Assembly (NCBI RefSeq): GCF_000027125.1
Contig: NC_017626.1
From: Escherichia coli 042
Lineage (GTDB): Bacteria; Pseudomonadota; Gammaproteobacteria; Enterobacterales; Enterobacteriaceae
Direction: 5' to 3' (one strand)
DNA length: 64,000 nt
The notes below the pieces were generated by a model. The model ran no database searches, had not been told where the DNA came from, and worked only from the letters and a program-made list of their open reading frames with translations. Positions 30,631-31,488 of this stretch are shown here, piece by piece (position 1 is the stretch's first letter; each line of letters opens with the position of its first letter). The translations under genes were made by a program, and so were the position numbers.

Positions 30631-30906
30631 ATGACTAAGCTTTATCACCGCATCTCAGCTTTTCTCTCTGGGTGCTGGGCGTTTATCACGTCTATTTCGT
30701 TCGCCATCTTTAGTTTCGGTAGCACAGCATGCTCGCTTAGTCGGGGTCTGTGGCGTGCTATTTCAGCACTAGCGCCGAAATTTTTACCTGAAAAGGTTGT
30801 TTGGCGAATTGTAGAGCGAATGTGTAGTGAGAGCGTTCGCGAGAAGATTAACGTATTTGGACGTCATCCTCGAAATACAGGCGCATTGTGCAGTTCGTTA
30901 CTGTAG
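30631..30906 (+). CDS. Hypothetical hydrophobic protein
   Basis: 91-aa ORF after Rz (bor position in lambda); no recognised family. Confidence 0.35.
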   Translation: MTKLYHRISAFLSGCWAFITSISFAIFSFGSTACSLSRGLWRAISALAPKFLPEKVVWRIVERMCSESVREKINVFGRHPRNTGALCSSLL

Positions 30907-31024
30907 TCATTACAAAGCCCATCTTTGGGTTTGGTTTGTAATTTCGCTGCTGCAATAATCACCAGAAATATGGCATTGTTATTGGTGGTCATATGTCATA
31001 CCCATCAATTACAAAGGAGCAGAC

Positions 31025-31276
31025 ATGTCATCTACAAAATTAGTTAAAACTATCCTTTTCCATGGAGATAATAAATATGAAGTTTATGCAACCTCCGAGT
31101 ACGCTGACGTAGATAGAATCATTCATTACAAGTTACGCTCATGTAAAAACACAGATGGTTCAGATGGCAAGTCTGAATCTATATGGGTTGTATATAATCC
31201 TGCTGTTCAACTACCGGATGATCTGAACTACAAAAAAGTTAGCAACATAGCTCCTTATCTTGAAAAGTTACAATAA
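31025..31276 (+). CDS. Hypothetical small protein, AT-rich moron
   Basis: 83-aa ORF with RBS AAAGGAG, own terminator, flanked by 14-15-bp direct repeats. Confidence 0.5.
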   Translation: MSSTKLVKTILFHGDNKYEVYATSEYADVDRIIHYKLRSCKNTDGSDGKSESIWVVYNPAVQLPDDLNYKKVSNIAPYLEKLQ

Positions 31277-31299
31277 ACTTCCTTTTCCACATGCTAAAA

Positions 31300-31325
31300 G
31301 CCTCGTATTCGCGGGGCTTTTTATT
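31300..31325 (+). terminator. Rho-independent terminator after the 83-aa ORF
   Basis: GCCTCG-tatt-CGCGGGGC hairpin followed by TTTTTATT. Confidence 0.55.
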
Positions 31326-31488
31326 GTCATTACAAAAGCCACTCCCTACAGAGTGGCTTTGATAATGGTTTATACCCTACACGGGATAACTTAACTGATA
31401 TCCCTTTTAACGGATAAACGGAGCCAACAATGGCAGAGAATGTCGGCATTATGGCAGTTAAATTTGGATAAATCGGAGATTAGTACAT

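Follow-up and report, generated by a model that had tools for sequence, protein, structure and literature searches.

An 83-codon accessory gene in a hairpin-bounded slot of a lambdoid Escherichia coli prophage, where the lysis genes meet the packaging genes

Between the lysis genes and the terminase genes of a prophage of Escherichia coli 042 lies a short AT-rich stretch that holds a single small open reading frame (ORF) and is bracketed by near-identical direct repeats. A sequence-only reading of the 64-kb stretch of DNA analysed here (hereafter, the window) had interpreted it as an independently acquired cassette delimited by these repeats. How did such a gene come to occupy this position, and are the repeats marks of its insertion or do they belong to the phage? 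The features on which the answer turns, among them two copies of a hairpin element for which we coined the name E, are as follows:

30631-30906, plus strand: candidate ORF91, a conserved sequence immediately left of the slot, with a full-length match to PHROG 34701 (labelled function unknown)
30906-30945, plus strand: left copy of E, decayed, with the 5' flank and 5' arm kept, the 3' arm mutated and the 3' flank shortened to TTTGTAAT
30946-31024, plus strand: cassette leader, with ATGGCAT at 30970-30976, a promoter-like pair and a Shine-Dalgarno sequence at 31013-31019
31025-31276, plus strand: ORF83, 83 aa, with a full-length match to PHROG 16949 (labelled function unknown)
31296-31325, plus strand: intrinsic terminator, a AAAAGCCUCG-UAUU-CGCGGGGCUUUU stem-loop with a U-tract
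31326-31368, plus strand: right copy of E, intact, variant v2, matched by covariance model R1 at 31328-31367 (50.3 bits, E value 2.7e-11)
31369-31439, plus strand: conserved leader of the DUF2560 gene, with a second hairpin and T4 run at 31383-31408, a ribosome-binding site and the first 10 nt of DUF2560

Upstream of the slot are lambda-type S, R and Rz genes, the last with embedded Rz1, followed by the 91-codon ORF at 30631-30906, and downstream are the genes for an HNH endonuclease, a P27-type small terminase (TerS) and the large terminase (TerL). Thus, the cassette sits where the lysis module of a lambdoid E. coli prophage gives way to its packaging module. The region has a 100% identical counterpart in a prophage of E. 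coli strain 135. The lambda gene bor has the same position between Rz and the packaging genes, on the opposite strand, which bears out the earlier placement of the cassette in the bor slot. On the left edge, candidate ORF91 ends in a TAG (30904-30906) that adjoins the left hairpin element; it is annotated as HK140_069 in phage HK140 and is 97% identical in HK140, ECO2, MB07011, and AF10. It has no PGAP gene call in the PGAP-annotated records looked at, and no codon-position bias was found among its few variants. On the right edge, the DUF2560 gene starts at an ATG at 31430 and is reduced in the window to a 13-codon stump, with a mosaic joint at 31439/31440.

The 83-aa ORF at 31025-31276 was confirmed together with its own ribosome-binding site and terminator. 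The Shine-Dalgarno sequence AAAGGAG (31013-31019) lies 5 nt before the ATG, and the terminator, previously given as 31300-31325, spans 31296-31325, with an 11-bp stem at 31296-31321 and a T-tract to 31325 (-14.7 kcal/mol, z = -4.5); a terminator follows the homologues of ORF83 wherever downstream DNA was looked at. The homologues are 38-99% identical to ORF83, and substitutions relative to them are distributed over the first, second and third codon positions as 16/15/40, 11/10/23 and 16/13/35, an excess at the third position from which it follows that ORF83 is a real gene under purifying selection. The family is tiny: a search of 5.8 billion proteins gave 5 clusters at 90% identity, and one of 1.84 billion gave about seven genuine representatives at 50% identity; the long matches P0011 and P0013 in the representative search are tandem-repeat artefacts rather than relatives. 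The exact protein is encoded on at least 1,000 E. coli contigs, with close variants in Shigella and Salmonella, all labelled hypothetical, and tblastn matched it to none of 50,697 phage records. In every context showing either set of genes, relatives of ORF83, down to 38% identity, lie 3' of the lysis genes (holin, endolysin, Rz, and sometimes Rha) and 5' of the terminase, in the same orientation. E or its remnants are found on both sides of these relatives in strain cM8a and in loci L133 and L134, and weakly in L007.

The structure prediction proposed in the sequence-only reading yielded a confident AlphaFold model (pLDDT 88.5) consisting of four beta strands and a C-terminal helix, but no relative of this fold: the best Foldseek match in AFDB50 had an E value of 0.59, and a Foldseek search of the PDB with the first, poor model gave no match. 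Comparisons with Pfam and NCBIfam and with the PADLOC anti-phage defence profiles (E value of at most 1) returned no match, and the PDB sequence profile returned only noise, with IL-10 at an E value of 0.65. As a possible Bor, ORF83 has no match to the Bor families of Pfam, NCBIfam or PHROG, and its N-terminus, MSSTKLVKTILFHGD, has no lipobox. Two papers that screened phage accessory genes do not list the sequence in their supplements. The 'anti-CRISPR' labels carried by neighbouring slot genes in phage Huey were set aside, being without support from PHROG annotation.

The repeats themselves are where they had been reported, GTCATTACAAAGCC on the left at 30906-30919 and GTCATTACAAAAGCC on the right at 31326-31340. 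Their common 11-mer, GTCATTACAAA, occurs exactly twice in the window (at 30906 and 31326) against 0.03 occurrences expected from shuffles, so that a chance origin can be rejected; a repeat scan pairs the two over 16 nt at 88% identity. A third, related motif, TCAATTACAAAGG, does exist at 31005-31017, but its status as a repeat copy did not survive scrutiny. Since it overlaps the ribosome-binding site and, in an alignment of six cassettes, is kept in cM8a, the closest relative, but in none of the more distant ones, it is most likely a coincidental resemblance. The repeat unit had also been drawn too short: on the right it supplies the 5' flank and arm of a hairpin that is 40 nt long (31328-31367), and the repeats, rather than being parts of the cassette or products of its insertion, belong to the conserved phage hairpin element E. 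Each repeat is the 5' portion of one copy of E, the right copy being intact and the left decayed.

E is a hairpin of 36-40 nt composed of CATTRCA, a variable inner stem of 9-10 bp, a loop of 3-6 nt, and GAYAATG, with the flanks pairing with each other (CATTA/TAATG) around a 2x2 internal loop; the inner stem occurs in at least six variants with common flanks. The two copies in the window are of different variants, the left derived from v1 and the right being v2. The right copy, the sole intact one that model R1 detects in the 64 kb, has inverted arms of 17 nt that are 88% complementary and folds at -20.5 kcal/mol (z = -5.2). The left copy reads GTCATTACAAAGCCCATCTTTGGGTTTGGTTTGTAAT, compared with CCATTACAAAGCCCATCTACGGGTGGGCTTGTAAT in cM8a and TCATTACAAAGCCCATCTACGGGTGGGCTTGATAATG in the intact copy of the empty site described below; it still folds (-11.9 kcal/mol, z = -3.3) and is marked as terminator-like at 30915-30932 in a terminator scan, and model R1 does not detect it at E values up to 10.

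Across 26 distinct copies of E, 97.9% of the cells are paired and 9 of the 15 pairs show double-sided, compensatory changes, values reached by 0 of 500 shuffles, with slid controls only 33-47% paired. As these copies had been chosen with a folding filter, the count was redone with a pattern specifying the flanks only, and an uninterrupted sense-strand stem of 9-10 bp was found at 190 of the 207 sites so collected, against a mean stem of 0.7 bp for shuffled inner sequences. On the antisense strand the same sites mostly form stems of just 3-7 bp, because many of the sense-strand pairs are G.U; the right copy in the window, whose variant v2 has no G.U pairs, folds slightly better in antisense (-23.4 vs. 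-20.5 kcal/mol). In the census of loci, a biased sample that was retrieved with a v1-type pattern and includes near-duplicate phages, every one of the 158 copies that lie no more than 4 kb from an Rz homologue shares the strand of Rz, and the final copy ends exactly 63 nt 5' of the DUF2560 start in 51 of 59 loci. E always comes after a stop codon or the T-tract of a terminator. A covariance-model search of the whole HK140 genome identified only two copies, both at the lysis/packaging junction, and this distribution, with one intact copy in the window and all copies at the junction of Rz and packaging genes, led us to reject a REP- or MITE-like dispersed repeat. These data show that E is a real structure on the sense strand of the late transcript and is specific to this locus. 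The model found no E in the lambda segment from gene S to the right-hand genome end, so that the link to bor is positional only. Rfam 15 gave best scores of 11-24 bits over 30300-31700, compared with gathering thresholds of 37-100, and no description of the E hairpin or of ORF83 was found in full-text literature.

The sense-strand G.U pattern, the fixed orientation and the fixed distance to the next gene argue that E has a function in the late mRNA, and the compensatory changes together with the strand specificity point to a separate role of E in addition to supplying homology. Termination in the intrinsic sense does not fit the sequence, in which the sense strand of E runs on with GAUAAUGG and has no U-tract; at the slot, the definition of an intrinsic terminator applies only to the separate hairpin at 31296-31325.

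How widely the element and the gene are distributed was assessed with the query 30596-31488 against 5,426 complete E. coli genomes. Matches were obtained in 2,497 genomes (~46%), nearly all of them covering only the interval from 31299 or 31326 to 31418 or 31439, a common segment of ~120-140 bp that starts at the terminator or at E. Match starts fall at 31299, 31326-31329 or 31351, all within the terminator-E unit, and many E. coli and phage matches begin exactly at 31326-31329, where the right repeat starts; over the leader segment, matches in ~2,500 E. coli genomes stop at 31418 or 31439. The same pattern is seen in ~100 phage records, including Sf6, HK140, mEp460, HK544, and epsilon34. By contrast with the ~2,500 of 5,426 genomes that have the E-carrying segment, nearly all without ORF83, the cassette-specific part (30920-31325) is present in only 16. 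A search for the repeat in other prophages, as suggested at the outset, thus found it widely, but mostly without the gene. Repeats lying in a conserved phage sequence with no ORF between them had been named in advance as an outcome that would speak against the cassette; taken literally, this is what was found, and it defines the boundaries of the cassette rather than abolishing it.

The boundaries could be followed in individual genomes. An artificial 'empty site' sequence, built and used as a query, gave one unbroken match in E. coli MB07011, in which the ORF91 stop is followed by TCATTACAAAGCCCATCTACGGGTGGGCTTGATAATG (one intact E), GCTTATACCC, and the DUF2560 gene. Comparison with a prophage lacking the insert, another of the checks originally proposed, hence delimits the slot as a single intact E between ORF91 and DUF2560. 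In filled sites, the cargo lies between a left and a right copy of E, with the right copy directly before GCTTATACCC. Behind the same left flank, HK140 has 190 nt of non-coding DNA, ECO2 and many others have a Gp49-family gene, and AF10 has a 56-codon ORF. At least eight types of cargo were found between E copies, including the Gp49-family gene, ORFs of 56, 71, 80, and 94 aa, a leader-only state, ORF83, and a distant ORF83 homologue. Phage mEp460 and prophages of O157:H7 carry the same terminator and E (v2) after a bare GTCATTACAAA and without ORF83, from which it follows that the ORF83-specific DNA ends at ~31298. The AT-rich setting was likewise confirmed, with a GC content of 0.34-0.39 over 30900-31350 compared with 0.44-0.57 in the flanking genes, and in strain cM8a the same gene is found in a different gene neighbourhood. 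The foreign composition, the empty site of MB07011, the alternative cargo, the occurrence in 16 of 5,426 genomes and the cM8a neighbourhood uphold the original view of an independently acquired, self-contained cassette in the slot between Rz and the terminase.

The sequences on the two sides of E are freely combined. At first-position copies (n = 120), 29 upstream and 23 downstream flank types occur in 58 combinations, and 61 quartets display all four flank combinations, and at second-position copies, 17 different upstream sequences meet one dominant downstream sequence. At least two copies are present in 78 of the 130 loci and only the first-position type in 43, some of which are cut by contig ends. 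Unrelated sequences are thereby shown to reassort across E. Homologous exchange and a site-specific mechanism would both place breakpoints at the edges of E, so the breakpoints do not discriminate between the two. Phage annealing proteins act on homologies of this short length, and the E-bearing phage HK140 encodes a RecT annealing protein. Gain and loss of the cassette most likely occur by homologous exchange at E and not by transposition.

Transposition is nevertheless what direct repeats of 14-15 nt around an AT-rich insert of ~400 bp might bring to mind, the repeats having arisen either by duplication of the target site or as the termini of a small transposon that delivered ORF83. We give this explanation almost no credence. 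A duplication is contradicted by the full E that pre-exists in the empty site and by the two copies being different variants that differ also in their stems; moreover, the right E and the terminator are found in thousands of genomes that lack ORF83, the unit has neither terminal inverted repeats nor a transposase, and the cassette was never seen outside the slot. More of the layout would be captured by a dedicated recombination site at which cassettes consisting of an ORF and a 3' hairpin are moved by a site- or structure-specific recombinase, comparable to attC x attI recombination in integrons: each of the short, co-oriented ORFs has behind it an imperfect palindrome whose flanks are conserved and whose centre varies, unrelated cargo starts right after GATAATG(G) and stops at the 5' edge of the next E, and locus L134 contains four E matches over 5 kb. 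Such sharp junctions, however, are equally expected if E is mere shared homology. No conserved recombinase gene lies beside E in the loci looked at, E is devoid of the attC core motifs RYYYAAC and GTTRRRY, a stem relying on G.U pairs on the transcribed sense strand suits an RNA better than a recombination substrate, and each phage has only one to three cassettes, all of which make a dedicated site highly improbable.

Two further explanations concern the roles of the gene and of the hairpin. ORF83 might be a working part of the late programme, such as a helper in lysis timing or packaging, instead of an accessory moron, as would be consistent with the strict conservation of its position and orientation after the lysis genes across homologue contexts and with the failure to find a convincing promoter of its own. 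Against this stand its presence in 16 genomes compared with ~2,500 that have the same flank, its replacement at the same site by nothing or by unrelated genes, its foreign base composition, and its strong terminator, which a gene in the middle of an operon would not need; we regard this role as improbable. A claim with appreciably more weight, if still an unlikely one, is that E is just a terminator or a generic 3' hairpin that has no part in exchange and flanks the cassette on both sides as a by-product. The constant position of E behind a stop codon or terminator T-tract, the terminator-like score of the left copy and the antisense strand of v2, which resembles a good terminator, all favor it, but the sense strand continues as GAUAAUG instead of a U-tract, the combination of constant ends (CATTRCA and GAYAATG) with a varying stem is not seen in ordinary terminators, and the flanks reassort extensively across E. 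This explanation bears only on the primary function of E, and under it E could act as homology as well.

The explanation that we favor, and consider probable, is that the ORF83 unit is a moron in a slot bounded by E, exchanged by homology at E. The unit would be self-contained, with a ribosome-binding site, the 83-codon gene and an intrinsic terminator, and the slot would extend, bounded by E, between the lysis cassette (S, R, Rz/Rz1, and ORF91) and the packaging module (HNH, TerS, and TerL). Cassettes of the ORF83 type would enter and leave when lambdoid phages residing in the same cell exchange DNA by homology. Short, portable homology of the sort on which phage single-strand-annealing recombinases act would come from E together with the conserved terminator and leader next to it, and neither transposition nor site-specific insertion would play a part. 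The primary role of E may lie in the late mRNA, as a hairpin that protects or processes 3' ends at the lysis/packaging boundary; candidate roles are 3'-end protection, RNase III-type processing, and protein binding.

Transcription of the gene can be approached from the leader. In the alignment of six cassettes, ATGGCAT (30970-30976) is positionally conserved, as is a weak promoter-like pair formed by TGCAAT (30951-30956) and, after 17 nt, CATTGT (30974-30979). No promoter upstream of ORF83 passes a consensus scan in the window, and the promoter-like matches in relatives (9 of 12 positions at or near the equivalent place in L133 and L010, none in L007) occur at chance frequency throughout, so that transcription with the Q-antiterminated late operon is the default inference, and a weak promoter of its own is possible. 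ORF83 would accordingly be expressed with the late operon, perhaps also from that weak promoter, and its terminator would insulate the downstream genes outside the lytic cycle. As for the product, we can only guess, from its size, its context and the lack of enzyme-like features, at a small binding protein acting in phage-host or phage-phage conflict. The absence of ORF83 from most relatives suggests that it is dispensable for phage growth.

A more far-reaching version would make E an undescribed class of phage RNA with a processing or insulating role and, at the same time, the joints of an integron-like array through which lambdoid and P22-like enterobacterial phages trade accessory genes, ORF83 being cargo with a conflict function; in this full form, we find the proposal doubtful. 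Independent of it, ORF83 is well suited to functional screens of phage accessory genes, given its tiny family and its confident fold without a known relative. The more useful part is the delimitation of the slot, which supplies a sequence handle for cataloguing accessory cargo in thousands of prophages. In addition, E provides a testable model of how lambdoid mosaic joints form and represents a candidate RNA element absent from Rfam.

Among known systems, the closest in position is the bor gene of lambda. It has a promoter of its own, encodes a lipoprotein and lies on the opposite strand, whereas ORF83 has only a putative promoter, runs in the direction of the late operon, has a predicted soluble product, and is related to Bor neither in sequence nor by family. 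Like the bor moron, located between Rz and cos (Juhala et al. 2000), ORF83 is an extra gene between lysis and packaging modules, and like morons in general, it is present or absent among otherwise similar phages, differs in composition, and has its own terminator. Judged by the definition of morons quoted in PMC2629481, the ORF83 unit conforms, its own promoter being only a weak candidate: it is present or absent at the same position (MB07011 is empty; HK140, ECO2, and AF10 carry other cargo; 16 genomes compared with ~2,500), it has a terminator (31296-31325), and its base composition differs from the surroundings (GC 0.34-0.39 vs. 0.44-0.57).

E, in turn, is comparable to the boundary linkers of lambdoid phages: it is short and conserved, marks the edge of a module, and has unrelated flanks that reassort across it. 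Unlike them, it folds into a hairpin that shows compensatory changes and is strand-specific. The modular theory of Susskind and Botstein is said to have treated short conserved linker or boundary sequences as points of exchange between lambdoid phages, and the analysis of HK620 by Clark et al. in 2001 reportedly proposed boundary sequences as exchange points in lambdoid mosaics. The slot also recalls integron cassettes with their attC sites, in the co-oriented ORFs with palindromes, the empty site and the alternative cargo, but it differs from them in having no IntI-type integrase in the annotated neighbourhoods, no attC core motifs, a structure on the sense strand that depends on G.U pairs, and only one to four copies. 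With REP and BIME sequences, E shares the form of an imperfect palindrome of 35-40 nt located after genes, and differs in not being dispersed, as it occurs at one junction and in one orientation.

Intergenic hairpins processed by RNase III are found in the polycistronic mRNAs of phages, as exemplified by the R sites of T7 and by lambda sib. E is like these in its two-part stem of ~15-18 bp with an internal loop and in its location between genes of a long sense transcript; this is a resemblance in predicted structure only, with no match to an Rfam family. Overall, set beside these systems, the ORF83 unit is an ordinary moron; what is new is the delimitation of its slot, with the boundary hairpin as the feature most worth pursuing.

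The interval between the lysis cassette and the packaging module is bounded by copies of E, the conserved hairpin element, and in most phages with two copies, the first and second hairpins are separated by a conserved non-coding stretch, AAACCGGAATTTATTC...GGAAAGACATC, of ~158-190 nt, which is not present in the window. Cargo genes are inserted 3' of this stretch, which may itself function as a regulatory leader or as a small RNA. In mEp460 and an O157:H7 prophage, a bare half-element, GTCATTACAAA, is followed by 11-12 nt and then by the terminator and E variant v2 of the window, with no gene in between. 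Either the cassette here has lost its gene, or this arrangement is the ancestral form of the site of ORF83, the 83-codon cassette gene.

1850-2007 of the HK140 locus (L001): AAACCGGAATTTATTC...GGAAAGACATC stretch, also found at many IMG/VR loci
1479-1569 of the mEp460 locus (L137): bare GTCATTACAAA half-element with the terminator and E v2
1479-1570 of the O157:H7 prophage locus (L138): bare GTCATTACAAA half-element with the terminator and E v2

The prophage carrying the most distant ORF83 relative (L134) contains a 4.6-kb island between its E copies (5547-10169), with genes mostly on the opposite strand (DUF2441 and unknowns), which suggests that accessory islands of larger size fit into the slot. 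Phage Huey (L140, 386-1501) has a pair of genes in this slot that the GenBank record names 'anti-CRISPR protein'. The label looks unsupported, since neither of the PHROG families concerned (872 and 322) is annotated in that way.

Two short reading frames lie next to or across the left E copy of the window.

30631-30906, + strand: ORF91, matching PHROG 34701 and annotated in HK140
30864-30992, - strand: 42-aa 'hypothetical protein' of strain 135 (WP_257270443.1), RefSeq annotation

ORF91 is not called by PGAP in any E. coli genome examined and may not be a real gene, given that its few variants are devoid of codon-position bias (3/3/3). The antisense frame, probably a spurious call, covers the 3' end of ORF91 together with the decayed left copy of E.

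Downstream, the DUF2560 start codon is separated from E by an invariant spacer of 63 nt, which contains another conserved hairpin, GGGATA...TATCCC, with a run of four T residues (31383-31408).

31430-31471: DUF2560 gene stump of 13 codons, with a mosaic joint at 31439/31440

The widely conserved segment stops within this stump, ATGGCAGAGA being its last bases, which indicates that a P22/Sf6/HK140-type leader is fused, within the first codons of DUF2560, to an HK97-type HNH-TerS-TerL packaging module.
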